Assembly: GCA_964545365.1 (NCBI GenBank)
Contig: CAZJFM010000001.1
Location: forward strand, 30,948 to 94,947
DNA length: 64,000 nt
From: an uncultured Candidatus Competibacteraceae bacterium
GTDB taxonomy: Bacteria > Bacteroidota > Bacteroidia > CAIKAF01
Direction of reading: 5' to 3'
Below the pieces are notes generated by a model that saw only the letters and a list, made by a program, of their open reading frames with translations, had not been told where the DNA came from and did not search any database. The translations under genes and the position numbers were made by a program. Shown here piece by piece: positions 4,131 through 24,490 of this stretch (its first letter is position 1; every line of letters starts with the position of its first letter).

Positions 4131-4135
4131 CTTTC

Positions 4136-8181: not shown

Positions 8182-9055
8182 TGCAAACCTTTAAAACCTT
8201 TATGCCGTCAAAAATAGTATTATTTGACTTCTGTTTTTTTGTAATAATATTTAGAAAGGTTGTCCATTGGCTAACATAAGTATCATTTATTGTTTCATTG
8301 AAAACTTCTATAAGAGTATCATTTAACTCTAATTGACCAGTTAATAAGTTAGCCTTTATTTGCCCTTTAGTACCCAAAAGCTTCAATTCCCTTTTATTTG
8401 TTTTGCTAAGGTAGCTTAAATTAATATTGACAGTCATTTTGTCGTGGTATAATAGATGATAAGAGGCAGTTTCAAACGAGTTAATTTCTAGCTCACCCCA
8501 GTTTTCTAACGATGACATTACTTTGCAAGGCATTCCAAATAGGAAATAAGCTAGGTCTATTTCATGTATCAGGTCTAAATGGACTCCACCACCTTTATTG
8601 CTATTGGCTGAATATGATTCCTTAAAATTTCCACTTCTCCATTCTGGTAAATAACTAAGACACTCGAAATGCGCAGACCAAATCTTACCAATAACCCCTG
8701 ACTCCAGAAACTCTTTCAACTTTTGTATTATTTGAAGGTATCGAAGGTTACAACCCATCAATGTGTTGATGTTTTGTAAACATTTTATTTGTTTGCGTGT
8801 GAAATTTGGAACGGTGTGGGAAACTGGCTTTTCAATAAATAAGTTATTACTTAAATGAAGGTTATCAAGGATATGTTTGGTATGGAGGTAGGTGGGGGAA
8901 CAAATTAAAACAGCATCATAAAAGTCTGTTTGACTTATCTGTTCCTTTTCACTCCTTGAGTCAATAATTTCAAAGGAAATTTTGGGATTTAAGCTTTTAA
9001 GTATTTCCATATGCTTTCGGGCTATCGACCCGTTTCCAATTGATTTAAACTTCAT
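8168..9055 (-). CDS. Gfo/Idh/MocA-family oxidoreductase (paralog 3)
   Basis: N-terminal dinucleotide-binding region and the EKP motif (FIEKPVSH). Confidence 0.7.
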   Translation of the reverse strand: MKFKSIGNGSIARKHMEILKSLNPKISFEIIDSRSEKEQISQTDFYDAVLICSPTYLHTKHILDNLHLSNNLFIEKPVSHTVPNFTRKQIKCLQNINTLMGCNLRYLQIIQKLKEFLESGVIGKIWSAHFECLSYLPEWRSGNFKESYSANSNKGGGVHLDLIHEIDLAYFLFGMPCKVMSSLENWGELEINSFETASYHLLYHDKMTVNINLSYLSKTNKRELKLLGTKGQIKANLLTGQLELNDTLIEVFNETINDTYVSQWTTFLNIITKKQKSNNTIFDGIKVLKVCNGEI

Positions 9056-9767
9056 ACCTTTTTTCTAGCTTAAATTTTACATAGAGATAATCTTCAATTG
9101 AGTCAATGTCAATGCATTTAGTTTTTTGGACTTTAATCGAAAAATTTGCATCGGTAACTTTTCTGTAGCCCATTTCAAAGAATTTTTTTCTGTATATATA
9201 AAATGCTGCGCTCAATTCATATACATTGGGAGCATCTTGTCGCCGTAAATAGCCATCTGAATCTTTGCAAATTTTGTAAGTGTTTTCTGGCCCCTTCTCA
9301 ACCATATTAAAATATGGGTTTTTAGTTGCGTGATTTACGCTCATAATTAGATCAAGGGATTTATCAGAGTCCAAAAGGTTTAAGGCGGATATTATATCTT
9401 CAACCTCGCGTTCAGGTGCAGTAACATCAAGGTCAATAACTGTATCGAAGATTAAGTTAGATTCTGCCTCACAGTATTGAATTAGATCATTTATTGCTTC
9501 AATTTTGCCTGACTGGTCGGAGGCTAGTTTTTGAGGCCTTGATCTCAGGAAATCTACACTACCATTGCCTTTATTTAGTATTTTGTCGTAGTCACTAGAA
9601 AGGCCAATTAACACGTTAATTTTAGAGGTTTTTATTCTTTGGGCTAACTCTTTAGCATGATTTATCGTAATAACAACTAATGGCTTTTCATTGATAAGTA
9701 GTAAATTTTTATTGGGAATACCCTTGGACCCTCCTCGAGCACAAATAGTTATTAATATATTTCTCAT
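9045..9767 (-). CDS. CMP-nonulosonic acid synthetase (acylneuraminate cytidylyltransferase family; NeuA/LegF/PseF-like)
   Basis: N-terminal ICARGGSKGIPNKNL motif, characteristic of CMP-NeuAc/CMP-KDO-type cytidylyltransferases. Confidence 0.8.
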   Translation of the reverse strand: MRNILITICARGGSKGIPNKNLLLINEKPLVVITINHAKELAQRIKTSKINVLIGLSSDYDKILNKGNGSVDFLRSRPQKLASDQSGKIEAINDLIQYCEAESNLIFDTVIDLDVTAPEREVEDIISALNLLDSDKSLDLIMSVNHATKNPYFNMVEKGPENTYKICKDSDGYLRRQDAPNVYELSAAFYIYRKKFFEMGYRKVTDANFSIKVQKTKCIDIDSIEDYLYVKFKLEKRYEV

Positions 9768-9773
9768 AATAAG

Positions 9774-10835
9774 TTATTTGAAGTTTACAGAATCAATTAT
9801 TTGATTAGCTTTATCATAGTCCATTGGATTCCCAATGTCTAGCCAGAAGTCTTTCATTTCGAATGGCGCAACTTTAAAACCATTTGAAAGACATTGCTCA
9901 ATTAATTCGGTAGCATCTAAGTACTTAAAGCTGTTAGCAAGTTTCCTGACTCTTTCATTCATTAAGTAGATCCCCGCATTTGCCAGATATGTGTAAGTTG
10001 GCTTTTCGGATAAGCTGGTAATTAATCCGTTTTCTAAATCAAAAATCGCATATGGAACTTTTGTAGTGTAGGGAATAGCTGCGACTACTAAATCTAACCC
10101 TTTTTCCTTAAAGCAATCATAGAAGCCCCTGAAATCCAAATTGGTTAATAAATCACTATTCATTAAAATAGTGTCTTCATAATTTAGCTTTGCATCAATA
10201 AGGTTCAAAGCTCCTGCTGTTCCTAATGGCTCCTCTTCCTTAATAAAGTTAAAATGTATATTTCCCTTGTACCTTTCTCTTAAGGATTTGATGATTTTGT
10301 CTCCTAAATACCTGATTGATATATTATAATTATCTATCCCATGTTTATTCAACCAATCTATGTTATGACAAATAATTGGTTTTTCGCCAACTTTAAGTAA
10401 GGGCTTAGGTGTGGTTAATGTATAAGGGCGCAAGCGTGATCCTTTGCCTCCTGCCATTAATAGAACGTTTACAGGCAATATCGTTTTTGTAACATTTAAA
10501 TCAATAAGTTTAACTAAAAGCTTTTCATTGTTCAATAAAGGTATAATAGTTATGTTTCTTTTCTTATAAGTTTCAAAGTCATTATAATAACTCTTTGAGC
10601 TAGTTTTAAGAAAGGCAAATTCTTTCTTCATAAAATCTTGTACTTTATCTTCCAGATTAAGGCCTGAAATTAAGCCTCTCCTTAAATCACCATCCGTTAT
10701 TGACCCGATAATTTTGTTATTTTGACTATCCTTAACAAAGAGTACTAAAGCTTTCTTATTTGAGATCCTTTCTAATTGAATTAAGGCTTCTCTTGCCGTT
10801 CGATTATTCCCTATAATATGATTATCAACAACCAT
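9774..10835 (-). CDS. CBS-domain sugar-phosphate nucleotidyltransferase (PtmE-like, GDP-sugar branch of legionaminic acid synthesis)
   Basis: A CBS pair (IGSITDGDLRRGL) is followed by the NTP-transferase motif LLMAGGKGSRLRPYT. This architecture is known from Campylobacter PtmE. Confidence 0.7.
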   Translation of the reverse strand: MVVDNHIIGNNRTAREALIQLERISNKKALVLFVKDSQNNKIIGSITDGDLRRGLISGLNLEDKVQDFMKKEFAFLKTSSKSYYNDFETYKKRNITIIPLLNNEKLLVKLIDLNVTKTILPVNVLLMAGGKGSRLRPYTLTTPKPLLKVGEKPIICHNIDWLNKHGIDNYNISIRYLGDKIIKSLRERYKGNIHFNFIKEEEPLGTAGALNLIDAKLNYEDTILMNSDLLTNLDFRGFYDCFKEKGLDLVVAAIPYTTKVPYAIFDLENGLITSLSEKPTYTYLANAGIYLMNERVRKLANSFKYLDATELIEQCLSNGFKVAPFEMKDFWLDIGNPMDYDKANQIIDSVNFK

Positions 10836-11901
10836 GGTGTATTTTTTTTAGGACTTCAATTATTTTTTTACTCGCACATTTGTCACCGTATGGGTGAGAA
10901 TTCATACTAAGACATGTGGGTGAATTCATTAGTTTTTTAACGGTATTTTGGATGAGCGTGTGGTTAAACGGTAAGTTTATGACATTTTGTCCAAAAGGTC
11001 TTCCTTTTTGCCTAATACCTACGTTAATTACCCATTTATTAAAGGCTCCTGCTTCGATTATTCCACTTGAACTATTTCCAATGATTAAGGTTGCTTTTAA
11101 GAACTCTTCCGGATACTTAGAACCTAAGTTGGGTATTATTTGAACATGTTTTGGCCATTTAATTTTTTCGATAGTTTCAATGATTTCTTCTCGACCATAA
11201 TCAGAGTTCGGATAGGTTATGATACCTTTATAACCACTTTGTAAAATTGCTTCAAAGAAATCATTAATTTCTTCTTTTGTTTGATTAATATATGGGTGTA
11301 AAGTTGCAATAAAGCACTTTTCAACATCTCTTTTTTCTTGTGCTTGAGTGGCTATTCTATAGTTGTTAAGATACTCAATACCCAATGAACCAACTGGGTA
11401 AATATTCTCATTACTTCCTGTAATACAAGATATTCGTTTCCCAAACTCTTTTGTGCTTGGAAAATGTAAGCTTGATAACCTAGTTATGAAATCTCTATAA
11501 TAGTTGTCATACGATCCTGATGTAATTTCTCCTCCGTGAATATGAGCGATTTCAAAATTGGCTAATTTAAGTGCTAATGATGCAGCAAACATTTCGTATC
11601 GATCACCAAGTGAAATGATAATATCCCAATGTTTTGATTTAGTCTGGAGAAACTCATTGAACTTATTTAAAAAGAATGCAATCTTTAGGGAGTCAGTTTT
11701 TGAATCTAATTCATCATGCTTGGTGTGTATTGTTTGTAAGCAAATAGTTTTAAATTTTATATTTTCCCAACCTTCGAAAAGAAAATGATCTCCAAATAGA
11801 ATGATTGAGGCGTTTATCCATTCTTCATTCTCAAGGGATTTAAGTAATGGAGTATAAATGTTTATGTCGGCCCTGGATGAGCTTAATATTCCTATATTCA
11901 T
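10825..11901 (-). CDS. neuC: UDP-N-acetylglucosamine 2-epimerase, hydrolysing (NeuC/LegG family)
   Basis: MNIGILSSSRADINIYTPLL, GDRYEMFAA and HIHGGE motifs typical of hydrolysing 2-epimerases. Confidence 0.8.
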   Translation of the reverse strand: MNIGILSSSRADINIYTPLLKSLENEEWINASIILFGDHFLFEGWENIKFKTICLQTIHTKHDELDSKTDSLKIAFFLNKFNEFLQTKSKHWDIIISLGDRYEMFAASLALKLANFEIAHIHGGEITSGSYDNYYRDFITRLSSLHFPSTKEFGKRISCITGSNENIYPVGSLGIEYLNNYRIATQAQEKRDVEKCFIATLHPYINQTKEEINDFFEAILQSGYKGIITYPNSDYGREEIIETIEKIKWPKHVQIIPNLGSKYPEEFLKATLIIGNSSSGIIEAGAFNKWVINVGIRQKGRPFGQNVINLPFNHTLIQNTVKKLMNSPTCLSMNSHPYGDKCASKKIIEVLKKIHHGC

Positions 11902-12911
11902 TTAAATAGAGTTAGTTTTACGGGGGCATATTTCAAAACATCTTGTTTTAGAGTTTTGCCAATTAGCGACCAATAAAGTGTTGGTGAAACTCCATTCTGG
12001 GGACGACTGACTAGAATGTCAGTTTCAGTAATAATCTTTCCTTTAGGTATAGACTTTGAAAAGTAAAGGCCTTTTCTTGCATGGTTTATATTTTCTAATT
12101 CTGTTGGACTTGGTTTAATTGTTTGATTGCCCATTAATTGTTCTGCTAATCGAATTTTAGAGACGTAATCTTTTAATTCATTCGGCTCTAAAGATGATTT
12201 ATGGTCTGGTCCTTTTAATTCTCTGCTAAGGGTAAAGTGCTTTTCAACAATTGAAATGCCAATTGCAACAGCCATCATTACACTGTAATAACCTTGTGTA
12301 TGGTCAGACAAACCTACCTTGCAGGGAAGTATTTCTTTTAACCTAAATATTTGGGAAAGATTGACTTCACTTGACGGAGTTGGATAAGCCGTTGTGCATT
12401 GCAAAAACGTAGCTTTACTCGGTGCGAATTTCAATTTGTTAAACAGAAAGTCTGAGGTTTCAATTATTTCTTTTTCTGAGGTCATTCCGGTTGATAAAAT
12501 TAAACCAATGTTTTTTTCTGCTGCATGTTTTATGAGGTGAAAATTATTGAAATCTCCTGAAGATAGTTTGACTTTTTTAACGCCTATTGAATTGAGGAAA
12601 TGAAGTGAATCAATGTCAAACGGAGTTGATATGAATTCAATGTTTATGTTTTCACAATGCCTTTTAATTTCTTCAAAATCTTCAAATTTGAGTTCTAGAC
12701 TTTTTAAAAGTTTAAATTGCGAACTTCGCCCTGTTTCTTTCTTTTGATAGGGTGCTGATAAGGCGTCTTTCAGGACTAAATTTTCTGTTTTAAAAGTTTG
12801 AAATTTCACGGCATCCGACCCGGCCTCCTTTGCATAGTCAACTAGTTTTAAGGCGTTACTTAAACTCCCATTATGGTTGATACCTGCTTCGGCAATTACA
12901 AATGTGTTCAT
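11898..12911 (-). CDS. neuB: N-acetylneuraminate/legionaminate synthase (NeuB/LegI family)
   Basis: N-terminal FVIAEAGINHNGSL...AVKFQTF TIM-barrel signature of NeuB-family aldolase-type synthases. Confidence 0.85.
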   Translation of the reverse strand: MNTFVIAEAGINHNGSLSNALKLVDYAKEAGSDAVKFQTFKTENLVLKDALSAPYQKKETGRSSQFKLLKSLELKFEDFEEIKRHCENINIEFISTPFDIDSLHFLNSIGVKKVKLSSGDFNNFHLIKHAAEKNIGLILSTGMTSEKEIIETSDFLFNKLKFAPSKATFLQCTTAYPTPSSEVNLSQIFRLKEILPCKVGLSDHTQGYYSVMMAVAIGISIVEKHFTLSRELKGPDHKSSLEPNELKDYVSKIRLAEQLMGNQTIKPSPTELENINHARKGLYFSKSIPKGKIITETDILVSRPQNGVSPTLYWSLIGKTLKQDVLKYAPVKLTLFK

Positions 12912-12920
12912 TTTTTACTT

Positions 12921-14087
12921 TTATCTTTTCACTGAACTTGGTAAATTCAATGCTACTTTTGATAACTGCATTGTGTTACTCAATTCTTGGAAGATTAGAC
13001 TCTTTTCTTTGACATACTTAAATGTATGCGCTGGTTGCCAAGGAGGGCGGACCATAATATTTGCATCGATACATGTTTTTATATTGTGTGCTCTTTCTCT
13101 TTCATTTTCAAAAATAACGGTGTTGAGCCAGTAATTTGAAATTGTTCCTTCTTTCGCAGTTAAAACATAGCCTGGGAATTTTATTGCTTTAAGAGTTTCT
13201 AAGTAATATTTATGTAACTTCTGTTTTTCAGAAATTAGAAATGGTAGTTTTTTTAGTTGTGCTACCAATAATGAGGCATTTAAATTGGGAAGTCTGTAAT
13301 TATAGCCTAGTTGATCATGATAATACTCAATTGGATCTGGAAGTTTTGCTTGGTTTGACAAATGTTTGATTTTCTTGGCTGTTTCTTCATCCTTAGTTAA
13401 TACCATTCCCCCTGAACCCGATGTAATGATTTTGTTACCGTTAAATGATAGAACGCCCATATCTCCAATAGTTCCTAGGTGTTGAGTGCCAATTTTTGAT
13501 CCTAATGATTCTGCTGCATCTTCGATGAGCTTAATATTGTATTTATGACATAAATCCCTAATAAGGAAAGCGTCTCCAGGTATGCCAAAGCTATACATTG
13601 GGATGCAAGCTTTAATTATTTTATTTGTGGTTATGTGTTTTGTACCCTCTTCTGTAATAATGCATTCGGTTTCTAAGAATTCTTGTAGCTTTTCGGGTGA
13701 AAGGCATAAATTCTTCCAATCAATGTCAATAAACAATGGTGTAGCCTTGCAGTATAAGATAGAGTTAATCGTTGCAATAAATGTGAAGCTTTGAGTGAGT
13801 ACAATATCACCTTCGGCAATATTCCCAGCAATCAATGATAAGTGTAAAGCGGCTGTACCAGAGTAGACTGGTACTGCAAATGTTACATCGCAATACGTAG
13901 ATAACATTGTAGCTGTCAGCTCCACATTGGGTCCAACGGAGGATACATAAGTAGAGTTAATACAATTTATCAACTCATCCTCCTCGTCTTGGTTGAAGTA
14001 GGGTTCATGGAGTAGAATCTGTTTATCCTCGCTAACCTGAAACCAATCTCTTATTACTTTAGGAAGTTTTATATTGTTAGATTCCAT
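12921..14087 (-). CDS. DegT/DnrJ/EryC1/StrS-family PLP-dependent sugar aminotransferase (LegC/PseC-like)
   Basis: Fold-type I aminotransferase pattern with the PLP-lysine region SFNGNKIITSG and DAAESLGS. Confidence 0.85.
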   Translation of the reverse strand: MESNNIKLPKVIRDWFQVSEDKQILLHEPYFNQDEEDELINCINSTYVSSVGPNVELTATMLSTYCDVTFAVPVYSGTAALHLSLIAGNIAEGDIVLTQSFTFIATINSILYCKATPLFIDIDWKNLCLSPEKLQEFLETECIITEEGTKHITTNKIIKACIPMYSFGIPGDAFLIRDLCHKYNIKLIEDAAESLGSKIGTQHLGTIGDMGVLSFNGNKIITSGSGGMVLTKDEETAKKIKHLSNQAKLPDPIEYYHDQLGYNYRLPNLNASLLVAQLKKLPFLISEKQKLHKYYLETLKAIKFPGYVLTAKEGTISNYWLNTVIFENERERAHNIKTCIDANIMVRPPWQPAHTFKYVKEKSLIFQELSNTMQLSKVALNLPSSVKR

Positions 14088-14977
14088 TTTTCATCTTTTG
14101 TGTAAGCATCTATATAAGAGTTCTGTGTTGTATTGATAACTACTGCCCCCTTCTTTTGAATGAGAATTTTTAAATCATGGTATCCTTTAAAGGTCAAATA
14201 AAGTTTTTTAAATTGCTCGTGAAGCAAAAAGTCAGTCCCATCAAGCTTTTCAACTGTGTTGTTTTTTGATTGCCAAAATGCATGTTTGTAGGATGTTCTT
14301 AATCTGTTATTGTCCAAAGAAATGTGTTTATGCCAGTCGTGATCAGTTCCAAATAGAAAGATTTGCTTAAACTTAAGCATAAGACTTAGGTAAATCGCAG
14401 CAACTAGTGTGTTATGAATACGTGGTGTGCCCAATCCCTTGTTCCAGAAATAATAGTTTATTATTTCTGACCCATCTACAGGTACTTGGTTAAAGAATTT
14501 TATTTCTAGATTCGGATTTTGCGAAATCTCTTTAATAAAGGTTTTTTTAGTGGCAAGCTGTGGAAGAAAAATATACATTTTCCAAGTCACCTTCATTAGG
14601 TTTTCGATAGTTTCCTTTTGGAGTTTTTGATATTTATCACTTACATTATCGGACCAGTATTCGTTGGCCTGTAACAAATGGATTTCAGGCTTCCATCTCC
14701 AAAACGCATCCGCTTTATAGAATTGATTAATTGTTAGTAACTTTACTTTATGGCGATTCTCGTTTATTTTATTTTCTTGGTGTTTAAGTGAGGGCCCATT
14801 TCCCAATATGAATAATGGGCTTTGTGAGTGTTCAAACTCTTTACTTAGCTTTTCATAATTGTGCTTTGCGTATTTTTGCTTTGCTAAATACAAAACTTTT
14901 AAAGCACTCAAAAAATCCTTGTGAACCATCTTTATCGCCATCAAAACAAAATTAGAAAGAATGTTTGGAAGGTTCAT
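14069..14977 (-). CDS. GT42-like sialyltransferase / nonulosonic-acid transferase (CstII-like)
   Basis: GNGPSLK followed by INQFY matches the Campylobacter CstII N-terminal motifs (AGNGPSLK...CNQFYFED). A later IFLFGTDHDW resembles the CstII catalytic-His region. The gene sits next to the CMP-sugar pathway. Confidence 0.5.
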   Translation of the reverse strand: MNLPNILSNFVLMAIKMVHKDFLSALKVLYLAKQKYAKHNYEKLSKEFEHSQSPLFILGNGPSLKHQENKINENRHKVKLLTINQFYKADAFWRWKPEIHLLQANEYWSDNVSDKYQKLQKETIENLMKVTWKMYIFLPQLATKKTFIKEISQNPNLEIKFFNQVPVDGSEIINYYFWNKGLGTPRIHNTLVAAIYLSLMLKFKQIFLFGTDHDWHKHISLDNNRLRTSYKHAFWQSKNNTVEKLDGTDFLLHEQFKKLYLTFKGYHDLKILIQKKGAVVINTTQNSYIDAYTKDEKWNLTI

Positions 14978-14983
14978 GTATTG

Positions 14984-17797
14984 ATGGACCTTCCCATAAT
15001 GTTTTTAATGATTTGCTTTTTTCAAGGTAGCATATTTACACCTTTATTTTCTCAATCAATAGACCTTTTAAATAGTAAACTCGCTGATGAAGAAGTCTAT
15101 GATTTACATGAACCTATTGCAGGCGAGTTGCTTTTAATGACTTCCAGAGGTTTAGTGCATGCGAAAAGGAGAAATTCTATTCAATTGGACGTAAGGCGCT
15201 ACTATGAAGGATTTCAGTTTTGGGAGGCATATGAAGATTCAACAGGGGTCTTGTGGTTAATTGGGAATAATCCCTATTTAATTCGATTTACACATAGTGG
15301 CGTTTCAAAAGTTTCCGTAGTGAATAGTGATGGTCAATTCCCATTTGGTTCATTTGGCCTAGGCGTTGTTTCAGGGCCAGTGGGAGAACTCTATCTACCC
15401 ACAGTTACTGGAAACCTTTCTTTGCTTGGTGATCGAAAGGACTTTTTTGAATCAATACGTTTTTTGAGTGAAAAGGCTCGGTTACTGCATCTAAATGATA
15501 CGATTGTTGTTGCTCCTTTGTATATATTCAATAAAAAGGATTCTAGTATTTTACAATTTGCAGATGCTCCTCCTCGGTCATCTAGAAACTATGTAATGTT
15601 TCAAAGTTTAGAGGGTATTTATGTTACCCATACTTTTCACCCTAATGAAGTGTGGTTTATTTCAAGGGAGACCGCTGATCCTCAATCAATTTCTTTAAGT
15701 GTGATTCCTGAATTAAAAGATGGTTTAATCTTTTTAGGGCATTTTTATAATCGACTTTGGTTTAGGAGTAGCAATTCATTGTTGTGGTTTGATATGCATG
15801 GAGAGTTTGGGGGCAAGTACCATCTCCCTTTTAGATTTCAACCAACGAAACTAGTTCCTTCTTTGGGGGGCGGGCTTTGGGTTCTAAGTCTAAATCATGG
15901 AATTCAACATATCAGTTTGACAGAATTAAGAGGTGATCAATATACAGGGGAAGGGGTACTTTCAACAGAAATTAATCTATTGAATGGCCTTGGTGCAGTT
16001 ACTCACGATAGGGAAAGTAAAGAAGTTGCAGTATTCAGGGGTAATCAGAGAACAAAAAAGTTTAATTATAAGCAAGAACTTCCTAAGCTTTGGGAATCTG
16101 AAGTTGTTTATTTATTTAACCAAGTTTTTATTGCATCAGAGGAGTGGTTGTTATTGGGGGATGGGGGGGCAACAACCTCTTATGAGTCATTGAGGGTGAA
16201 CCCAAGGTATATTGAGACAGAGGATAGCATTGGTGTTATGTTGACTTACAAGGGTACTTTTGGGTTGACACTTTGTCCTAATGGTACAATATCTTCGTAC
16301 AAGATATCCCCGAATACTTTTGGTAAGGCATCTTTGGGTGGAAATGGGATTTTTTTGTCTAATAATTCTGGTCTTTGGTTTTCGGAACAATCCGGAACCA
16401 AATTTCTTCCCGCAGAAAGATTAAGTGAAGAGCCCGTTAATTTTATGGGGTCTTTAAATGGAGTGACTTTTTTCCAAATGAAGGGGGGGGGGTGTTTTGT
16501 CTCAAATGGTAAAGAGCTTGTTAACCTCAATATTAGGTTGGGAGAGGTCGTCAAGTGTTTTGGTTATTCAAAACGCATTAGGGGATATTATGTGATTACA
16601 TCTAATACAATTTACCGCCTAAAGAGAATAAACAAAAATGTTTTTGTTAGGGAAGAATCTTCTTTCTTGGCCTCAATTTCAGGAATCGTAAAAGATGCAA
16701 CTATTGTAGACGATGAAGTCTTCCTTATTCGCCAAAATCATAGAGGAGAAAGTTTATGGTCATTTAGTTTGGAAGACCTATTTATTGCGGTTAAAGGTGA
16801 ATCTCATACTACTAACTTAGAAGGAGAATATATTATTCCTGAAGAGAATCCAGTATTAAATCTCTCTTTGGGAACAAACGCAATGCTTACAATGGATTCA
16901 GTTCATTTCATGTGGAGGTTGGACGGTGTTAGTAATGAGTGGAAAAGCTTTGATGGGTCTTCCATTGACTTTACCGGTTTCAAGCCTGGGAGTTTTCGTA
17001 TTTCAGTTGTCCAGCATTTTGCAAGGCATGAAATCGATAAGGACTCTTTTATAGTCCATATAACAAGACCATTTTACCAAACGCCAGCTTTCTGGGTAAT
17101 AAGTTTGTCATTATTTATTTTAATATTGACGCTTCTATTGGTTTGGAAGATTAAATCTTATGCCATTAAAGCACAGCTCGAGCTGCGTTTAATGCAGCTG
17201 GACCGTAAAGTTTTTGGCAGCAGGCTGAATGCTCATTTTGTTTTTAATACACTAAATAATTTAAAAGGGCTAGTTGAAAGTAGAAGAGCTGAGGAGGCTT
17301 CTTTTTACTTAACAAAGTTTTCAAAGGTTTTGCGCAGTTTTCTTGAGCAAACCTTTTCTGACGCAACTCCCGTTAGCAAGGAGGTTCATTTTTTATTGGA
17401 TTACCTCAGCTTAGAACATATGAGATTTCCTGGAGCATTTGAATTTACGATACGTTCTGGAGAGGATGTCTCGGAGCTTGAATTCCCAAGTGGGATTGTT
17501 CAGCCTTTTGTTGAGAATTGCTTCAAACATGCCATTTTAAAGAGGCCAAATGGTGGTGGCCATATTGATATTGTTTTTTATAGGTCAGACTCCAACGGGG
17601 TTTGTGTTGAAATTTCCGATAATGGCCCTGATAATAATAGCCAGCCAATAAAGGAGTCAGATTTTTCAGGTAGAGGGCTTCAAATCATTAAGGAGCACCT
17701 AGAGCTTTTGCGAAAGTTAAAAAGGTGGGATGTTCATTTTCAAACTGAATTTCATTGCACTGGATCGAAAATCACTATCTTAGCGAAAAAAATGTAA
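14984..17797 (+). CDS. Sensor histidine kinase, LytS/YehU type (PF06580 His_kinase + HATPase), with a roughly 700-aa extracytoplasmic sensor domain
   Basis: A signal-like N-terminus (MDLPIMFLMICFF) and a large sensor domain precede a single TM helix (AFWVISLSLFILILTLLLVW). LytS-family motifs NAHFVFNTLNNL and LEHMRF and the ATPase G-box (GRGLQII) follow. A G10 tract lies in-frame at 16491-16500. Confidence 0.8.
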   Translation: MDLPIMFLMICFFQGSIFTPLFSQSIDLLNSKLADEEVYDLHEPIAGELLLMTSRGLVHAKRRNSIQLDVRRYYEGFQFWEAYEDSTGVLWLIGNNPYLIRFTHSGVSKVSVVNSDGQFPFGSFGLGVVSGPVGELYLPTVTGNLSLLGDRKDFFESIRFLSEKARLLHLNDTIVVAPLYIFNKKDSSILQFADAPPRSSRNYVMFQSLEGIYVTHTFHPNEVWFISRETADPQSISLSVIPELKDGLIFLGHFYNRLWFRSSNSLLWFDMHGEFGGKYHLPFRFQPTKLVPSLGGGLWVLSLNHGIQHISLTELRGDQYTGEGVLSTEINLLNGLGAVTHDRESKEVAVFRGNQRTKKFNYKQELPKLWESEVVYLFNQVFIASEEWLLLGDGGATTSYESLRVNPRYIETEDSIGVMLTYKGTFGLTLCPNGTISSYKISPNTFGKASLGGNGIFLSNNSGLWFSEQSGTKFLPAERLSEEPVNFMGSLNGVTFFQMKGGGCFVSNGKELVNLNIRLGEVVKCFGYSKRIRGYYVITSNTIYRLKRINKNVFVREESSFLASISGIVKDATIVDDEVFLIRQNHRGESLWSFSLEDLFIAVKGESHTTNLEGEYIIPEENPVLNLSLGTNAMLTMDSVHFMWRLDGVSNEWKSFDGSSIDFTGFKPGSFRISVVQHFARHEIDKDSFIVHITRPFYQTPAFWVISLSLFILILTLLLVWKIKSYAIKAQLELRLMQLDRKVFGSRLNAHFVFNTLNNLKGLVESRRAEEASFYLTKFSKVLRSFLEQTFSDATPVSKEVHFLLDYLSLEHMRFPGAFEFTIRSGEDVSELEFPSGIVQPFVENCFKHAILKRPNGGGHIDIVFYRSDSNGVCVEISDNGPDNNSQPIKESDFSGRGLQIIKEHLELLRKLKRWDVHFQTEFHCTGSKITILAKKM
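16491..16500 (+). repeat. G10 homopolymeric tract inside the sensor-kinase coding sequence (a G5+G7 pair also lies at 16156-16169)
   Basis: Read directly: aag ggg ggg ggg tgt encodes K-G-G-G-C, in frame with the kinase ORF. Confidence 0.9.
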
Positions 17798-18531
17798 TGA
17801 AGATAATTGCTGTAGATGATGAGCAGCTGGCGCTTACTCAGCTGAGTAAAGTTTTTGAACTTGTTGACGTACAGGTAGTAGAACTTGATCTTGAATCCAA
17901 TCCCTTAAAAGCGATATCTAGGATAAAATCAAATAGCTATGATATAGCTTTATTGGATATCGAGATTGGTGCTGTATCAGGTTTTGACCTGATGGAAGAA
18001 ATTAAGGGAGATGTGAAAAAGATCGTTATAACCACAGCTTATGAGAATTATGCGATAAGGGCTTTACGTGAAAGAGTCTATGATTACCTTTTAAAACCTG
18101 TTGAGATAGATGATTTGAACGGGATGCTAAACAACTATTTAGAAGAAACCGCCCCAAATTCTTCTAAATCAAAAGGTAAACAAAGGATGATTTGTACGAT
18201 ACCTGTTCCTAGTGGAAAACTGTCTATTCCCTCTCTAAGCGGTTTTCGACTTATAGACTTAATGGATATCACCTATATTGAATCAGAGAACACTTATTCA
18301 AAACTTCATTTTAAAGATGGAGGCAGTCTTTGGGTTACAAAACACCTCAAGGAGTTTGATAGTGAGCTGTCAAACAATGGATTTTTTCGAATTCACCAAT
18401 CTTTCTTAATAAACCTCGCTTATGTTACAGGTTTCAACAGGGTTGAAGGTGCTAAAGTCGAGCTTTTAAATAGTATTCAATTGCCTGTAGCTCGCCGCAA
18501 GAAAGACGAGTTTCTTTCCTGCTTTAAATGA
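17797..18531 (+). CDS. LytTR-family two-component response regulator
   Basis: Receiver domain (MKIIAVDDEQLAL...LLDIEIG) plus a C-terminal LytTR DNA-binding domain. The start overlaps the kinase stop in a TAATG junction. Confidence 0.85.
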   Translation: MKIIAVDDEQLALTQLSKVFELVDVQVVELDLESNPLKAISRIKSNSYDIALLDIEIGAVSGFDLMEEIKGDVKKIVITTAYENYAIRALRERVYDYLLKPVEIDDLNGMLNNYLEETAPNSSKSKGKQRMICTIPVPSGKLSIPSLSGFRLIDLMDITYIESENTYSKLHFKDGGSLWVTKHLKEFDSELSNNGFFRIHQSFLINLAYVTGFNRVEGAKVELLNSIQLPVARRKKDEFLSCFK

Positions 18532-18592
18532 CCAAATTCTTCTTGGTTGAGGAGTTACTTCAATCTTTCAATTGCTTTTGATAATTTTGAAT

Positions 18593-21211
18593 ATGAAGTT
18601 TTATGCCTCAATTTCACTCGAAACTATCACATTTATAGTCTTTTTTTTCGTTTGTGAGACCTTGAGTGCCCAAGGGGGGTATGATCAATGGTTTTTCTCC
18701 CAGCAAACGAATTATGGACTTTCATTTTCTCCAAATGGTTCAGTTGCTGTAACATCAACCCATGCAACTCCTTTTGCTGAGGAGGGTAGTGTTGTTGTTG
18801 TTGATCCAATCATTGGAAACCTTTTATTTTACTCAAATGGAAATGTGGTTTGGGATGGAAATCATAACGTGATGCCAAATGGGGTAGGGCTACTTGCCAA
18901 CCCTTCAGTTTCAGAAAAGTGTGAAACCATCCAAATTCCAGGTGAATGCGGCCGCTTCATGATGTTTCATTCTACAGCTGTTGCTGAGAATAATGGTAAT
19001 GGTAGTTTATACTACTCTATTGTAGATATGAATTTGCCAGGTAATGGTAGTATCGCATCCCCACTTGGTGACCTCGACCCAACCCACAAAAATGTTCCTG
19101 TAATGTCAAACCCTGTGGAAGGTCTGGAGATTATAAAAGGCCCTTCGGACACAGTGGCATGGCTATTTACTGGTGTAGTTGGAAGTGGAAATTTAGAGCT
19201 CTTTAAAATTACAGTTGGAGGTGGAATAATAAATCAGTCTACAATTCCCTTAGGCATCAATTATGACGATATAAGATCTTTAGTATTCTCTTACGAGTCC
19301 TCCAAACTTGCAGTTGTTTCAAATCAAGAAAGTAAGCCAGTTATTATTATAGATTTCGACCTTTATTCCGGAGCGGTAGGGGCTGTGAATCAAGTGCCTG
19401 GGTCAATAACAGGGCCCAGTAGCTTCTATTGGACAGGTTTTTTTGATGTAGAGTGGTCGCCAAGTGGAAGATGGCTTTATTTAGCAAAATACAGGCATGG
19501 CAATCTTGCTGGCGGTATTTACCAGTACGACTTACTAAATCCGGCAGTTCCAATAACTCTACAATATTCTAACCCAGGAGGAGGTTCCAATAATTGGGTT
19601 ACTGATTTAAAAAGGACTGTCAATGGTGAAATTTTGTTTTTTGACTATCAAGGTTCGAATGGGGGGACACAAATGACTTTAGGTGAGATCCAGAATGCTG
19701 ATTCTTCTAGTCCTCAATACGTTGCCTCCAATTTATCATTTAGTCAAAATTTTAGTCCTGCCCACAAGTTTTCGAATTCTTTGAGTTCTTTCCCTGCTCC
19801 AGAATTGAATGATGATTCAGTTGTCTTGAATTGCTTAAGTTCAGTTGATACTTTATTCCCTTTTTTGAATGACGACATCGTTGCCTCAATAGCTGATTTT
19901 AATTTCACAGTTATTCAGAACTTTTCTTCCGTTATAGGCACATTTAGTGGGGATACCTTGTTTGTAGCTAGTAATAGTTCATATTCCTTAGACACCTTAA
20001 TTTATGAAGTTTGCACTGTGGGGTGTAGTCCATTTTGCGATACAGCAATTATTGTGGTTTCAGATCAAGGCCCAAGCATATCCCTTCTTCAGGACACAAC
20101 TATACTTTGCAAACCAGATTCAATTTTTATTGATACCAATGGTGTTTCTTGGGATTCATTGATTTGGTCAGATGGTTCAAATGGTGCTGCTATTTTCATC
20201 GATACAGCTGGCTCATTAGAAGTTAAAGGTTATTACGGAAATTGTATTGTGAGTGATACCATTTCTGTCTTTTTCGCACCAAGCTTGATGGAACCAGATA
20301 CAACTTCCTTAATATTTTGTGAGGGAGACTCTCTTCTTTTGTTTTTTGAGTTGGAATGCGACCTTTGTACGTATCAATGGAACACTGGGGTCGTTTCAGA
20401 TACAATTTATGCCAATACAGATGGCGTTTATCGCTTCAGTTTTTGGAATAGTTGTGATTCTTCCTATCAGGACTTCGAGGTATTTAAAAGGAATCAGCCA
20501 CCTTCAATAGCGACTGTTGATACAATTGTTTGCCCTGAGGATTCCGTCGTATTTAGTCCTTTAAGTTATTCTAGTGACTCTAGTTTAACTTGGGCAGTTA
20601 ACGATACCTATATCCCGAGCGATACCAATTTGGTACTTGGTGACTTTTTTAATGAAGTTCGGGCATCCAACGAATGTGGAATGAATACCTTCTTCATAAA
20701 CGTTAGCTATTTGATGGAGCCATTGCCTTCTGATAGCGTAATTATTTCATGTTCAGACTCTTTGCTATTTAAATTCCCTGAAGCTCTTGTTGTTTTTGAC
20801 AGTACTGGAAACCATATTAATTCAGAGATTTGGATTAAGGAAAACGAGTCAATTACGGTCTCTTACCTTTATTGTGATAGTGTGCGCTTTTTTAATTTAT
20901 TTAAAAAGTCTATAACCGAAGATATTTCAAATGCAATCCTTTCAAATGTATTCACACCCAATGGTGACGGAATTAATGATTTTTTTCATCCTGTTCCACT
21001 ACAGTTCCTTAGTACCTCAAGCTTGATCGGGGAATTCTTTATTTTCAATAGGTGGGGTTCTGAACTTTTCCATTCAACCAGCCTTAAGACACCATGGGAG
21101 CCCAACTTGGACGTTCCAGAAGGGACCTACTATTGTGTAGTTATTCTTGGTGACTCTTGTTCCCCCGGTACCCAAACTAGGCTTGTTAAGTCTTTTCAAC
21201 TGTTCCGTTGA
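18593..21211 (+). CDS. Large secreted cell-surface protein with a T9SS type-B C-terminal sorting domain (gliding-motility-associated CTD); adhesin-like, paralog 1
   Basis: Signal peptide, an N-terminal roughly 250-aa domain shared with the next gene, and Cys-containing repeat modules. The C-terminus has the FTPNGDGINDFF...IFNRWGSELF motif typical of the TIGR04131/CHU_C sorting domain. Confidence 0.7.
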   Translation: MKFYASISLETITFIVFFFVCETLSAQGGYDQWFFSQQTNYGLSFSPNGSVAVTSTHATPFAEEGSVVVVDPIIGNLLFYSNGNVVWDGNHNVMPNGVGLLANPSVSEKCETIQIPGECGRFMMFHSTAVAENNGNGSLYYSIVDMNLPGNGSIASPLGDLDPTHKNVPVMSNPVEGLEIIKGPSDTVAWLFTGVVGSGNLELFKITVGGGIINQSTIPLGINYDDIRSLVFSYESSKLAVVSNQESKPVIIIDFDLYSGAVGAVNQVPGSITGPSSFYWTGFFDVEWSPSGRWLYLAKYRHGNLAGGIYQYDLLNPAVPITLQYSNPGGGSNNWVTDLKRTVNGEILFFDYQGSNGGTQMTLGEIQNADSSSPQYVASNLSFSQNFSPAHKFSNSLSSFPAPELNDDSVVLNCLSSVDTLFPFLNDDIVASIADFNFTVIQNFSSVIGTFSGDTLFVASNSSYSLDTLIYEVCTVGCSPFCDTAIIVVSDQGPSISLLQDTTILCKPDSIFIDTNGVSWDSLIWSDGSNGAAIFIDTAGSLEVKGYYGNCIVSDTISVFFAPSLMEPDTTSLIFCEGDSLLLFFELECDLCTYQWNTGVVSDTIYANTDGVYRFSFWNSCDSSYQDFEVFKRNQPPSIATVDTIVCPEDSVVFSPLSYSSDSSLTWAVNDTYIPSDTNLVLGDFFNEVRASNECGMNTFFINVSYLMEPLPSDSVIISCSDSLLFKFPEALVVFDSTGNHINSEIWIKENESITVSYLYCDSVRFFNLFKKSITEDISNAILSNVFTPNGDGINDFFHPVPLQFLSTSSLIGEFFIFNRWGSELFHSTSLKTPWEPNLDVPEGTYYCVVILGDSCSPGTQTRLVKSFQLFR

Positions 21212-21228
21212 TTGTAATTAAATTGTCT

Positions 21229-21236
21229 TAAATTTG
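21229..21236 (+). promoter_or_regulatory. Bacteroidetes sigma-A -7 box (TAnnTTTG) upstream of adhesin paralog 2
   Basis: TAAATTTG lies 18 bp upstream of the ATG at 21254. Confidence 0.3.
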
Positions 21237-21253
21237 ATTACCAATTCTAAATC

Positions 21254-24058
21254 ATGAAAGCTTTGAGATTTTTTGTTCTTTTAATACCATACTTATTGGG
21301 CATTTCTGCACTTGCTCAGAGTGAACGGGTAAACTGGTATTTGGGTGATGCTACAAGTTTGGGGGTTCAATTTCCTTTGCCCAATTATGTTCCTAATGTT
21401 ACCACAGGTAATGCCGTTCCGATGGGGCGTGAAGGTCGATTTGTTGGCACTCACCCCATCAGTGGAAACCTTTTGTTCTATGGGAATGGCACTGTACTTT
21501 ACGATGCGTCGGGGATGACTATGACAAATGGTGCGGGGTTATCAGGCAATGTTGGTAATTTTCAGTCGGCTTGGTCTGTTCCAAATCCAGCTAATTGTGA
21601 CCAATATTACTATATCTACAATTCCGCGGTTAGAGAAAATGCTCCTGGAGGAGTCTTTTATTCAATTATAGACATGTCAGCACAAGGGAATGGCACTCCA
21701 GGCAATCCACTTGGCGAAGTTGTAATGGCTCAAAAGGATGTTCCTATTTATCAGCCCTCTTGGGAAGGTTTTACAGTTATTCAAAGTGTTGGTAATCATG
21801 CATACTGGCTTTTAATAGGAAATGGAAACGGCTCTTCGATTGAGGTATTCAATATTTCTGCTGGAGGTGTTAACTTTTCCAGTTCATTTCCTTTGCCAGC
21901 AGCTTTAGGCGACATAAGAACAATAAGAGCCAATCGATTAGGAACACAAGTGTTCTTGGTTAGTGGTGTTGAGTCTGACCCATCCTATATTATTGACTTT
22001 AATCCTGCTATCGGGGCTCTTTCTAACCCAATCGCTATCCCAGCATTTGGTGCAAGTAACAATTTTTTTGACGGAAATTTGGATGCGGAGTTTTCATTTG
22101 ATGGTACTAAAGTGTATGTTTCAAAAATGCGCAACCCAGGCGCAGGGTCGGGTGGGCAGATATATCAAGTTGACTTATCAAATTTAGGAAACCCACCCGT
22201 AATAGTGTATGATAATATGGGTGGCAATAATGATTTTGTTAGCGGTTTGAGGAGAGGGCCTAATAAGCAAATTTACTTTGTTCACCGGGAGCCGACAAAT
22301 GGGTATCGTTATTTGGGTGTTATCCAAAACCCCAATGCTGCCGGCCTAGCCTGTAACCCACTTTCCTCTGGTATTGATTTGGGCCAAGGGTTCAATGAAG
22401 AATATTTTGGATTACCTAATTTTTTTCTGGAGAACTTCAAACCTGTTGCAATAACTGATTCAATTATAGTCCCGTGTAATCAAGGTTTTGCGGCTCAGGT
22501 TTCACCACTAATCAATGATTTGGATTCCAACTTTACTGCTTTTTCATTATCCCTTATTGATATTCCTCAAGGGGTTCAAGCTTCAATTAATGGTACGCAG
22601 GTTGATGTTGTTTTTCCAAATGTTTTCTTAAATCAGGACACTATTTTTTATGAGGTTTGTGACGATCATTGTTTTCAAAAGTGTGACACAGGCTTTATTG
22701 TGTTAGTTCCAATTTCCAATGTTCCTTCGCCTTTTTGGCCTAATGATACAAGTCTTTGTGCTTCCAGCCCATTACCGCTATTTACCCCATTATCTAATCA
22801 AGGACTTTTACATACTTGGAGCACTGGAGCGACAACTGATACCATATTCGTTTCTAATACTGGTGACTATTCAGTAGAAGTTAACTTGGGCAATTGCGTA
22901 ATTCGGGATACTATTTTTGTAGATATTATATCAATTCCCAGCCCCAACCTAGGACTCAACCGACTCATTTGCTCCGGTATTCCTCCAATCCTTGACGCTA
23001 CCTGCTCCGGGTGCTCGTACCTTTGGTCTACTGGTTCAACTGCCGGGTCTATTGCTCCAACCCAACCCGGTAATTATTGGGTGCAAGTCACTTCCCAGTG
23101 CGGGGTCGGTTCCGATACCGTGGCCGTTACTTCCTCGGTTCAACCTTTTGTAGAACTTGGTCCTGATCGGCTCGTTTGCGATACATCAGACTTATTTATT
23201 GATTACTCTTGCCTTGGTTGCTACTACTTGGTGAATGACCAAGCAGCAGACTCCTCGCTTACTATTGAAGCCTCAGGAACCTATTGGGTGGAAGTGGGTA
23301 ACGATTGTGGTACGGTTTACGATACGGTAACCCTTGTTATGGGAGCCAATGCCGAATTTAATATCCTCGACGATTCCTTGGTTTGTCCCGGCGATACCGC
23401 TTACCTTACCTCTTCGGGTGCCGTTGCTCCATACACTTGGTCTGATGGTTCCTCGGGAGATACGCTTATGATTACCGAACGCGGTTGGTACACGCTCACC
23501 TGGAGCGGAGTATGCGGTGAAACTACTGACTCGGTTTATATAAAACAGCTCCTGCCTTCGGAAATAACGCTAGGTGATGACTTTACCGTGTGCGATAGTG
23601 GCTTCGCTCCTATTTATATTGAAAACTTGGGAGATGACGCCGAATACCTCTGGTGGAATGGTACAACAGGAGATACCGCTTACGTATTTAGAGAGGACAA
23701 CTACGTGGTGCGCGTGGATTATTGCGAAGATTTTTACACCGACACCATTTTTGTGCGGTATACCGACGAAACAGACGGCCTCTTTATACCCAATACCTTT
23801 ACTCCTAATGGCGACGGACTCAATGAAGTCTTTTATATTCGCGGGCTTGACCCGGCTTGGCTAAGTTTTGAATTTCTTGTGTTTGACCGTTGGGGGCAAA
23901 TTGTGTATCAAACCGATGATCCTCGGAAAGGATGGGAAGGATTAGATCCTTCCGGTGCCAATAAGCTCGACGACGGTTCCTATGTGTATAAGGTCATTTA
24001 TACCTCCCCTTGCCGATCGGAATGGGAATATACCGGCGTAGTAAACATGATTCGTTGA
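21254..24058 (+). CDS. Large secreted cell-surface protein with a T9SS type-B C-terminal sorting domain; adhesin-like, paralog 2
   Basis: Signal peptide (MKALRFFVLLIPYLLGISALAQS), an N-terminal domain paralogous to the previous gene, and four or five roughly 78-aa Cys-containing repeats. The C-terminus is FTPNGDGLNEVFYIRGL...VFDRWGQIVY. Confidence 0.7.
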   Translation: MKALRFFVLLIPYLLGISALAQSERVNWYLGDATSLGVQFPLPNYVPNVTTGNAVPMGREGRFVGTHPISGNLLFYGNGTVLYDASGMTMTNGAGLSGNVGNFQSAWSVPNPANCDQYYYIYNSAVRENAPGGVFYSIIDMSAQGNGTPGNPLGEVVMAQKDVPIYQPSWEGFTVIQSVGNHAYWLLIGNGNGSSIEVFNISAGGVNFSSSFPLPAALGDIRTIRANRLGTQVFLVSGVESDPSYIIDFNPAIGALSNPIAIPAFGASNNFFDGNLDAEFSFDGTKVYVSKMRNPGAGSGGQIYQVDLSNLGNPPVIVYDNMGGNNDFVSGLRRGPNKQIYFVHREPTNGYRYLGVIQNPNAAGLACNPLSSGIDLGQGFNEEYFGLPNFFLENFKPVAITDSIIVPCNQGFAAQVSPLINDLDSNFTAFSLSLIDIPQGVQASINGTQVDVVFPNVFLNQDTIFYEVCDDHCFQKCDTGFIVLVPISNVPSPFWPNDTSLCASSPLPLFTPLSNQGLLHTWSTGATTDTIFVSNTGDYSVEVNLGNCVIRDTIFVDIISIPSPNLGLNRLICSGIPPILDATCSGCSYLWSTGSTAGSIAPTQPGNYWVQVTSQCGVGSDTVAVTSSVQPFVELGPDRLVCDTSDLFIDYSCLGCYYLVNDQAADSSLTIEASGTYWVEVGNDCGTVYDTVTLVMGANAEFNILDDSLVCPGDTAYLTSSGAVAPYTWSDGSSGDTLMITERGWYTLTWSGVCGETTDSVYIKQLLPSEITLGDDFTVCDSGFAPIYIENLGDDAEYLWWNGTTGDTAYVFREDNYVVRVDYCEDFYTDTIFVRYTDETDGLFIPNTFTPNGDGLNEVFYIRGLDPAWLSFEFLVFDRWGQIVYQTDDPRKGWEGLDPSGANKLDDGSYVYKVIYTSPCRSEWEYTGVVNMIR

Positions 24059-24103
24059 GAAACCTGAAGGCTTTGTATCTTTGTAGGAAATTCAACATAT
24101 TCT

Positions 24104-24490
24104 ATGGAATTATCCGGCACCATTAAGCAAGTTCTCCCCCTACAAACTGGCGAAGGCCGCAATGGCCCGTGGCGCAAACAAGAGTTTATTCTTCAAACCG
24201 AAGGCCCATACCCTAAAGATGTGTGTATAGCCGTTTGGGGAAATAAAATCGACGGCGCCCCCATTCAAGAAAACCAAAAAGTACAGGTGTCTTTTGACGT
24301 TGAAAGCCGGGAATATAACGGTCGCTGGTATACCGATGTAAAAGCTTGGAAAGTTCAAGCGGCCGATGCTGCTGCTGCTCCGCCGCCGGCAGCAAATGCG
24401 CCTTCCGGAGCCGCAGCTCCTCCCTTTCCAGCAGCCCCTCCTCCTCCTCCTATGCCCGGTGGTGGTGGAGAAGACGATTTACCCTTCTAA
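24104..24490 (+). CDS. DUF3127-family small protein with a Pro/Ala/Gly-rich tail ending in an SSB-like acidic tip
   Basis: The N-terminal roughly 85 aa match the DUF3127 pattern (MELSGTIKQVLPLQTGEGRNGPWRKQEFIL...). The tail is AAAPPPAANAPSGAAAPPFPAAPPPPPMPGGGG followed by EDDLPF. Confidence 0.6.
   Translation: MELSGTIKQVLPLQTGEGRNGPWRKQEFILQTEGPYPKDVCIAVWGNKIDGAPIQENQKVQVSFDVESREYNGRWYTDVKAWKVQAADAAAAPPPAANAPSGAAAPPFPAAPPPPPMPGGGGEDDLPF

Follow-up and report, generated by a model that had tools for sequence, protein, structure and literature searches.

The locus described here occupies positions 14,984-24,058 of a 64,000-nucleotide stretch (the window) of contig CAZJFM010000001.1, from an uncultured Bacteroidota genome. 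It comprises four plus-strand genes, encoding a sensor histidine kinase with a PF06580 domain, a response regulator with receiver (REC) and LytTR domains, and two paralogous secreted proteins, P1 and P2, which are cargo of the type IX secretion system (T9SS). It forms the right-hand end of a cell-surface island of ~22 kb that is low in GC and exchanged between strains, and in which the kinase-regulator-P1 operon diverges from a minus-strand nonulosonic-acid (NulO) sugar cluster. Our proposed explanation is that a phase-variable kinase and its LytTR regulator drive a P1 operon within an exchanged NulO/propeller island. Taken jointly, with the island, the recombinant P2, the switchable two-component system (TCS) and P1 as its output all included, we give this composite an even chance of being right.

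Under this explanation the kinase would sense an extracytoplasmic cue, which might be a glycan if the sensor behaves like those of the Y_Y_Y type (the match in this kinase is sub-threshold), and would phosphorylate the LytTR regulator. The regulator would then activate its own kinase-regulator-P1 operon, with P1 co-transcribed, and P2 and/or the divergent NulO operon may be further targets. Slippage in a G tract would remove the kinase in a subpopulation of cells, resulting in OFF/ON switching and a heterogeneous display of the surface module.

PF06580/LytTR systems are very numerous in Bacteroidota and, to our knowledge, almost none has a known output. The locus is a concrete and testable case, with a likely slipped-strand kinase switch, a plausible co-transcribed output in P1, and two mapped recombination junctions that reveal which parts are inherited jointly.

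Two recombination junctions, in P2 and in the regulator gene

The right edge of the island falls inside P2, and the left edge coincides with the end of a yfhO-like gene at ~800, a boundary set by GC content only. The GC content at third codon positions (GC3) in P2 goes up at about codons 500-600, from ~0.26 to 0.42-0.50. The first-pass annotation of this DNA had described a shift of base composition within the P1-P2 pair. The GC3 step in P2 confirms that the shift is real, but it is not local to the pair and instead marks the right edge of the ~22-kb island.

Comparison with a second strain, L001 (GCA_030427255.1), shows how the two sides of this step differ. Mismatches per 300 nt between L001 and the window stay at 0-9 over most of 13.3-22.95 kb (one interval reaches 16), jump from 3 to 36 at 22,954, and range from 5 to 23 in carB. 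Divergence is ~1% within the island and 4-12% outside it. Synonymous divergence (dS), obtained by a codon-based comparison of the window with L001, is 0.049 for the kinase, 0.052 for the regulator, 0.035 for P1 and 0.031 for codons 1-566 of P2. For codons 567-934 of P2 it reaches 0.687, with a nonsynonymous divergence (dN) of 0.012, and it is 0.217 for DUF3127 and 0.176 for carB. The low dS of the island therefore indicates that this DNA, together with the first 1.7 kb of P2, was recently shared between strains. P2 is an allelic chimera, island-type in codons 1-566 and core-type in codons 567-934, and its 3' 1.1 kb is an old, strongly purified allele with a GC content like that of the core. 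The composition break that the first-pass annotation attributed to recombination is indeed a recombination junction, at which dS between strains goes from 0.03 to 0.69 (~22,950).

Two other origins for the break were considered. An abrupt change of GC and GC3 inside an open reading frame (ORF) of a metagenome-derived contig could reflect the mis-assembly of two organisms. However, the same in-frame junction is present in four assemblies, namely L001, L086 (ERZ23491156) and the Logan contigs L002 and L003, the latter two from different runs, and it is therefore not an assembly chimera. The ORF is also intact, its protein aligns with homologs end to end, and a second low-GC boundary exists at ~800, all of which makes mis-assembly hardly credible. 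Recombination or gene conversion between the P1 and P2 cassettes, as originally suggested from the mosaic composition, would be in keeping with tandem same-strand paralogs that contain repeated immunoglobulin-like (Ig-like) modules. Yet P1 and P2 are only 27% identical as proteins and have no detectable DNA similarity, and exchange between the paralogs is therefore excluded for practical purposes. No other copy of either half of P2 is present in the window, P1 is uniformly low in GC, the 5' half of P2 is nearer to a protein of another genome, P0002 of L004 (40% identity), than to P1 (32%), and the junction divides island-type from core-type DNA. We consider such an exchange very improbable, and allelic exchange at the island edge takes its place.

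P0002 is the closest relative of P2, the 40% identity applying to the propeller. Because P0002 lies in a 48% GC contig and likewise precedes a DUF3127 gene, P2-DUF3127 is identified as the resident locus. To the right of the island lie the ordinary core genes DUF3127, carB, rsmG and tgt. No tRNA, Rfam element, integrase or transposase was found at the island in tRNA and Rfam scans and among the Pfam matches. The island is thus sharp-bordered and compositionally deviant, with none of the mobility genes, tRNA targets or flanking repeats by which a genomic island is recognized.

A second recombination junction, seen in another lineage, L005, lies inside the regulator gene. L005 carries NeuC-NeuB-DegT-MptE on the minus strand, followed by the kinase, the regulator and a P1 ortholog on the plus strand. 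Its DNA identity to the window is 60-70% up to ~17,950, a position within the receiver domain, and 88-92% beyond it. At the protein level, the four NulO enzymes are 65, 66, 65 and 66% identical to those of the window, the kinase 57%, the regulator 87% and P1 89%. The LytTR domain, the spacer and P1, at ~90% identity, therefore form one linkage block, and the L005 kinase and NulO genes represent, by sequence, a different allele (55-67% identity).

Exchanged loci of the O-antigen or capsule type show comparable features, including a low-GC block without mobility genes, a divergence unlike that of the flanks, and junctions in flanking or conserved genes. Here, in contrast, one junction falls within the repeat array of a surface protein and the other within the gene of a response regulator, so that parts for regulation and protein display are exchanged along with the sugar genes.

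The kinase and its poly-G tract

The kinase-LytTR regulator pair reported at 14984-18531 in the first-pass annotation is present there, as PF06580 and REC-LytTR proteins. In Pfam searches, the kinase matches His_kinase (PF06580) at 59.4 bits, over the cut-off of 25.2, and HATPase_c at 16.9 bits, under the cut-off of 26.4. The protein starts with an N-terminal signal or transmembrane (TM) segment, continues into a periplasmic domain of ~680-700 aa and a single internal hydrophobic TM helix (aa 702-721, 17087-17146), and ends with the kinase core; gene callers chose an alternative start at 15008. The sensor matches Y_Y_Y at 19.8 bits, under the cut-off of 26.6, and has no Pfam match to Reg_prop propeller repeats. 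The Reg_prop/Y_Y_Y architecture occurs in distant relatives of the kinase domain. No 5TM-LYT membrane sensor domain was matched in Pfam even at E ≤ 5, so the kinase is not LytS proper. The earlier name "LytS" is a misnomer for a protein with a large periplasmic domain and one TM helix.

The regulator matches Response_reg (PF00072) at 59.4 bits and LytTR (PF04397) at 65.9 bits, both over cut-off, and the regulator start and kinase stop codons overlap in the sequence ATGA. Its best NCBIfam matches, BtsR and LytR, are both far under their cut-offs. The pair resembles LytSR and BtsSR/YpdAB in its PF06580 dimerization/phospho-acceptor domain and REC-LytTR partner. It differs from them in having an orphan periplasmic domain of ~680 aa with a weak Y_Y_Y match and no 5TM-LYT domain, and because of this difference in the sensor the kinase is not an ortholog of LytS, BtsS or YpdA. 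A search of 5.8 billion clustered proteins and 1.84 billion representative proteins with the sensor domain (14,984-17,098) returned, besides the same species, a single significant homolog, P0122 of L005, with 36-64% identity in 50-aa windows. The sensor is therefore a fast-evolving orphan.

A G10 tract in the sensor domain encodes Lys-Gly-Gly-Gly. Predicted from the reading frame, G9 or G12 leads to a stop at codon 537-538 and G8 or G11 to a stop at codon 509-510, and all four stops precede the TM helix and the kinase core. The tract is likely a slipped-strand contingency locus, which it resembles in being an in-ORF homopolymer, in the truncation caused by ±1 changes, and in its length polymorphism between otherwise identical assemblies. 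The kinase gene also contains (TTTA)3 at 16107-16118, G7 at 16163-16169 and G6 at 15865-15870, with no length difference among the available assemblies. A scan of JGI metagenomes for the poly-G flanks with variable tract length gave 0 matches.

The phase-variable kinase proposed in the first-pass annotation gains direct support, at the consensus level, from an assembly of the window's own strain. This assembly, L086 (ENA ERZ23491156), has G9 in place of G10, and this is its sole difference from the window over 21,588 nt; its gene calls split the kinase into products of 528 and 304 aa. Alternatively, the kinase would not be phase-variable and the tract would be there by chance, the G9/G10 difference and the contig breaks nearby having been produced by Illumina sequencing or by the assembler at a long poly-G run. 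Poly-G runs are prone to error, and the comparison of tract length rests on consensus assemblies, in which noise from homopolymer sequencing or assembly could account for G9 versus G10; this weighs against the proposed switch. In addition, both full assemblies (the window and L001) carry the in-frame G10, and the L005 ortholog, with its 57% identical kinase, has no homopolymer at the tract site. However, the A8, two T8 and G7 runs within the same 21,588 nt are unchanged in L086. The independent Logan contigs L002 and L003, from different samples, terminate at the tract or no more than 7 nt from it and show no other break in 9 kb. The tract, in a gene of 37% GC, is also the only G/C run of ≥8 in the 64-kb window, and it is kept in two strains. 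On balance we find an artefact rather unlikely and retain the reading of a phase-variable kinase.

Bordetella bvgS, with its poly-C tract, is a homopolymer-switched TCS gene, and inversion-based switching is the familiar mode in Bacteroidota. Homopolymer switching of TCS genes is also known for FlgS/FlgR of Campylobacter jejuni (PMC3930126). As in FlgS/FlgR, the homopolymer lies in the ORF of a TCS gene, and a ±1 slip truncates the product and would switch a surface-structure regulon. The present case differs in being from Bacteroidota, in having a LytTR and not an NtrC-type regulator, and in its putative output of T9SS cargo and/or NulO rather than flagella; switching here is predicted.

Proposed output of the two-component system

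The first-pass annotation proposed a dedicated TCS wired to adhesins, the two secreted proteins whose genes follow the kinase-regulator pair on the same strand with short spacers. The two proteins and the short spacers are confirmed (61 nt between the regulator and P1, 42 nt between P1 and P2). The proposed wiring is weakly supported: the synteny of kinase, regulator and P1 is found in the only other lineage having this kinase, L005, with the same 61-nt spacer between the regulator and P1. The spacer contains a weak stem-loop only, with no convincing promoter or terminator, and the only TAnnTTTG of P1 lies 3 nt from its ATG, too close for a -7 box. Co-transcription of P1 with the TCS is plausible because the spacer lacks a positioned promoter and has only a weak stem-loop.

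For P2, the -7 box previously noted ahead of the gene is present as TAAATTTG, with a TTG ~18 nt further upstream, and a similar -7-type box precedes DUF3127 (24076-24083, 20 nt before the ATG). TANNTTTG is not enriched in the window (83 found versus 72 ± 8 expected); its placement is suggestive only ahead of P2 and DUF3127. A scan for the sigma-70 consensus, which is uninformative for Bacteroidota, gave fewer matches than shuffled sequences.

Several points weigh against a TCS dedicated to the two secreted proteins. We surveyed 80 loci of the family, the best of >547 propeller-module matches across Bacteroidota (1.45 Mb in total), for LytTR regulators with a seeded hidden Markov model plus receiver-domain detection. 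Four regulators were found around the 80 propeller loci, two of them ≤3 kb upstream (L014, L072) and none directly adjacent. Because it is nearly absent from these 80 other loci, the TCS linkage is a feature of this lineage rather than of the protein family as a whole. Relatives of P1 and P2 in L004 and L087 have NulO neighbours and no TCS, which further weakens a dedicated wiring. Upstream of the kinase, P1 (18593) and P2 (21254), neither a general repeat search nor a scan of the 220 nt for 9-mers with ≤1 mismatch and a spacing of 19-23 nt revealed direct repeats of the LytTR type, a weak negative given that LytTR sites are degenerate. The argument for P1-TCS co-transcription comes only from the spacing and the missing positioned promoter. 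P2 has its own promoter-like box and may not depend on the TCS, which could just as well act for the divergent NulO operon. The AlphaFold2 (AF2) model of the sensor, built from only 3 sequences, is unusable (predicted local distance difference test score, pLDDT, 45). Finally, "adhesin" is only a label for P1 and P2.

The main rival holds that the TCS serves the divergent NulO cluster, or unlinked targets, and stands beside P1 and P2 only through a shared exchangeable island, with the propeller genes on their own promoters. The kinase starts 42-66 nt from the start of the MptE-like gene. The interval 14,927-14,983 holds CAAAATTAGAAAGAATGTTTGGAAGGT, which is better conserved relative to L005 than the surrounding 60-68% identical DNA. 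Within this block, a candidate shared regulatory site, lie TAATTTTG on the minus strand and one of the two arms of an 11-bp inverted repeat extending across the kinase start. The L005 kinase also co-varies with the NulO genes (57% and ~65%) rather than with P1 (89%). The same rival accommodates the NulO-linked relatives of P1 and P2 without a TCS, the well-positioned -7 boxes at P2 and DUF3127, and the lack of LytTR repeats upstream of P1 or P2. It does not sit well with the order, strand and spacer of kinase, regulator and P1 being kept in the only other lineage with the TCS, with the LytTR half of the regulator and P1 forming a single block of ~90% identity, or with the position of the one TAnnTTTG of P1, too near its ATG to act as a -7 box. 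We consider the rival unlikely and continue to favour the composite explanation, with P1 as the output.

A more far-reaching possibility is that the island is a self-contained "surface identity cassette". A strain-specific NulO glycan, the T9SS propellers that carry or bind it, and a kinase linked to the glycan allele would be inherited as well as swapped together, under stochastic poly-G ON/OFF control, and the sensor would co-diversify with the sugar cluster as a monitor of the glycan or of phage or host factors that target it. We regard this as speculative and distinctly improbable.

Propeller proteins, nonulosonic-acid genes and neighbouring features

P1 and P2 are old, distant paralogs, homologous from end to end (E 2e-73). 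Both have the T9SS type-B C-terminal sorting domain described in the first-pass annotation, with CHU_C (PF13585) at 43.8 bits in P1 and 61.3 bits in P2 (cut-off 27). TIGR04131 scores over its cut-off of 35 in P2 only (42.2 bits; P1 30.0). N-terminal signal peptides were identified by reading the sequence (MKFYASISLETITFIVFFFVCETLSAQ and MKALRFFVLLIPYLLGISALAQ), and in the AF2 model residues 2-17 form an N-terminal helix, after which comes a linker of low confidence. The N-terminal domain of ~250 aa that the two were said to share is present in both, but it is a beta-propeller of ~390 aa, and the homology spans the full length.

AF2 models residues 1-415 of P2 as an all-beta propeller (pLDDT 81, predicted template modelling score 0.83, from a 20-sequence alignment), for which the best Foldseek matches in the PDB are 7-bladed lactonase-like propellers (3scy, 4qrj, 3fgb). 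P1 consists of a signal peptide, a 7-bladed beta-propeller of ~390 aa, a linker, Cys-containing Ig-like repeats and the CHU_C C-terminal domain (CTD). In P2, the propeller and linker are followed by five Cys-containing Ig-like repeats of ~70 aa, with a faint Ig_7 match only. The propeller module of ~390 aa matches no Pfam model, and its >547 relatives across Bacteroidota genomes are fused to PKD, SprB or Ig modules. Like SprB-type gliding-associated T9SS type-B cargo, P1 and P2 combine a signal peptide with a modular, beta-rich passenger and, at the C-terminus, a CHU_C domain. They differ from it in a propeller without a Pfam model and in the absence of an adjacent PorP/SprF-like partner gene; none adjoins P1 or P2 in the 64-kb window, and the gene downstream of P2 encodes a DUF3127 protein.

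In the close P1/P2 subfamily, NulO genes adjoin in every independent locus seen and a TCS in none. In L004, a PseF-like cytidylyltransferase fragment (1-282, minus strand; TIGR03584 E 9e-37 versus KdsB 2.5e-14) is divergent from P0002 at a distance of 315 bp. In L087 (1-15,718), P0150, the nearest non-orthologous P1 relative (33% identity), starts 18 nt after NeuB within a NulO/polysaccharide cluster; genes for a LamG protein of T9SS type A and a Wzx-type flippase come next. In the broader family, L058 (5,031-11,245) has the order dehydratase-DegT-PglD-NeuB-NeuC, with a family member following within ~10 nt. Propeller-headed T9SS proteins of this subfamily thus stand beside NulO clusters in four lineages, irrespective of the TCS. 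From this gene order we infer an older, more general partnership between the propeller subfamily and NulO clusters, with the TCS as a lineage-specific insertion between them. The recurrent pairing suggests a functional coupling of a sialic-acid-like surface sugar with a specific class of secreted protein.

By analogy with the S-layer of Tannerella forsythia, P1/P2-type proteins may carry a NulO-containing glycan; alternatively, the propeller may bind or process it. In T. forsythia, strain-specific Pse/Leg clusters decorate T9SS-secreted S-layer glycoproteins (PMC5420450, PMC5378307, PMC8550257). The two cases are alike in that a Bacteroidota NulO locus is tied to T9SS surface proteins, the NulO type varies between strains, and P1 and P2 are rich in the Bacteroidota O-glycosylation sequon D(S/T)(A/I/L/V/M/T). 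They differ in that here the cargo genes adjoin the NulO cluster, with the TCS interposed, and the glycosylation of P1 and P2 is putative. P1 contains 20 sequons versus 3.7 ± 1.9 expected, and P2 contains 12 versus 3.5 ± 1.9. Because such enrichment is general in the family (median z 3.6 over 123 proteins), it lends the NulO link weak support. The sequons are concentrated in the stalk regions (protein positions 400-830), where Ig-like repeats often end in DT[IV].

Homopolymer-switched TCS genes, PF06580/LytTR pairs, T9SS type-B cargo and recombination-exchanged low-GC glycan islands are each already known singly. In the searchable literature we found no paper on a PF06580/LytTR system linked to T9SS cargo, and no report from Bacteroidota of the present combination, in which a likely phase-variable kinase lies between a NulO cluster and T9SS propeller proteins, with junctions in the regulator and the repeat array and a recurrent NulO-propeller pairing.

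The features of the island and its right-hand neighbour are collected in Table 1. In the sugar cluster, NeuC alone scores above its NCBIfam cut-off, and the LegB, LegC and NeuB scores are marginally under theirs; oxidoreductase genes are also present (Pfam). The product is probably a legionaminic-acid-type sugar, judging from these matches. Two ORFs amid the sugar-modifying genes, at 751-2214 (minus strand, 487 aa) and 3186-4130 (minus strand, 314 aa), match nothing in Pfam or NCBIfam, relaxed thresholds included, and could encode a polymerase, ligase or transferase of the NulO glycan.

Table 1. Positions in the window of the low-GC island, its genes and sequence elements, and the gene to its right.
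Feature	Position	Strand	Basis and remarks
Low-GC island	~800 to ~22,900-22,950		31-41% GC versus 45-50% GC in both flanks; composition profiles, GC3
NulO cluster, probably legionaminic-acid-type	2228-14941	-	Pfam, NCBIfam
LegB-like	2228-3298	-	NCBIfam, 447.6 bits versus cut-off 475
MBOAT	4136-5557	-	Pfam
CMP-transferase	9045-9767	-	Weak cytidylyltransferase match
NTP-transferase	9774-10835	-	Pfam
NeuC	10825-11901	-	NCBIfam, 248.5 bits, above cut-off 235.9
NeuB	11898-12911	-	NCBIfam, 376 bits versus cut-off 400
LegC-like	12921-14087	-	NCBIfam, 418 bits versus cut-off 420
MptE/DUF115-like	14069-14941	-	Pfam
Sensor histidine kinase	14984-17797	+	PF06580 at 17216-17434, then weak HATPase_c
G10 homopolymer in kinase sensor domain	16483-16492	+	Sequence
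Response regulator	17794-18531	+	REC 17803-18126, LytTR DNA-binding domain 18244-18516 (Pfam, NCBIfam)
P1, secreted T9SS type-B cargo, 872 aa	18593-21211	+	CHU_C CTD ~20939-21149
TAAATTTG, Bacteroidota -7-type promoter box	21229-21236	+	17 nt before P2 ATG
P2, paralog of P1, 934 aa	21254-24058	+	Beta-propeller ~21326-22438, CHU_C CTD 23783-24007
Recombination junction in P2, Ig-like repeats 1-2	22800-22954	+	GC3 step coincides with between-strain divergence step
DUF3127 gene	24104-24490	+	Pfam; right-hand neighbour of P2

Within the sugar cluster, a patch at 11,855-13,353 that takes in NeuB together with the 3' portion of the LegC-like gene shows 3-7% divergence between strains, with a dS of 0.19 for NeuB, against ~1% in the remainder of the island. 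The higher divergence points to another small tract of recombination within the cluster.

On the other side of P2, the DUF3127 protein has a Pro/Ala-rich C-terminal tail, partly encoded by (TGC)4 and (CCT)5 trinucleotide repeats, and DUF3127 is absent near the other 80 propeller-family loci. Past carB (window 27,843 onward), the alignment of L001 to the window ends. L001 carries there, at its positions 16,593-22,805, a PKD/CHU_C gene of >3176 aa with 48% GC and no DNA match in the 64-kb window; the window has a hexapeptide transferase gene, rsmG and an extracytoplasmic function (ECF) sigma gene at that site instead. This is another T9SS-cargo site that varies between strains, at a distance of 4 kb from the first.

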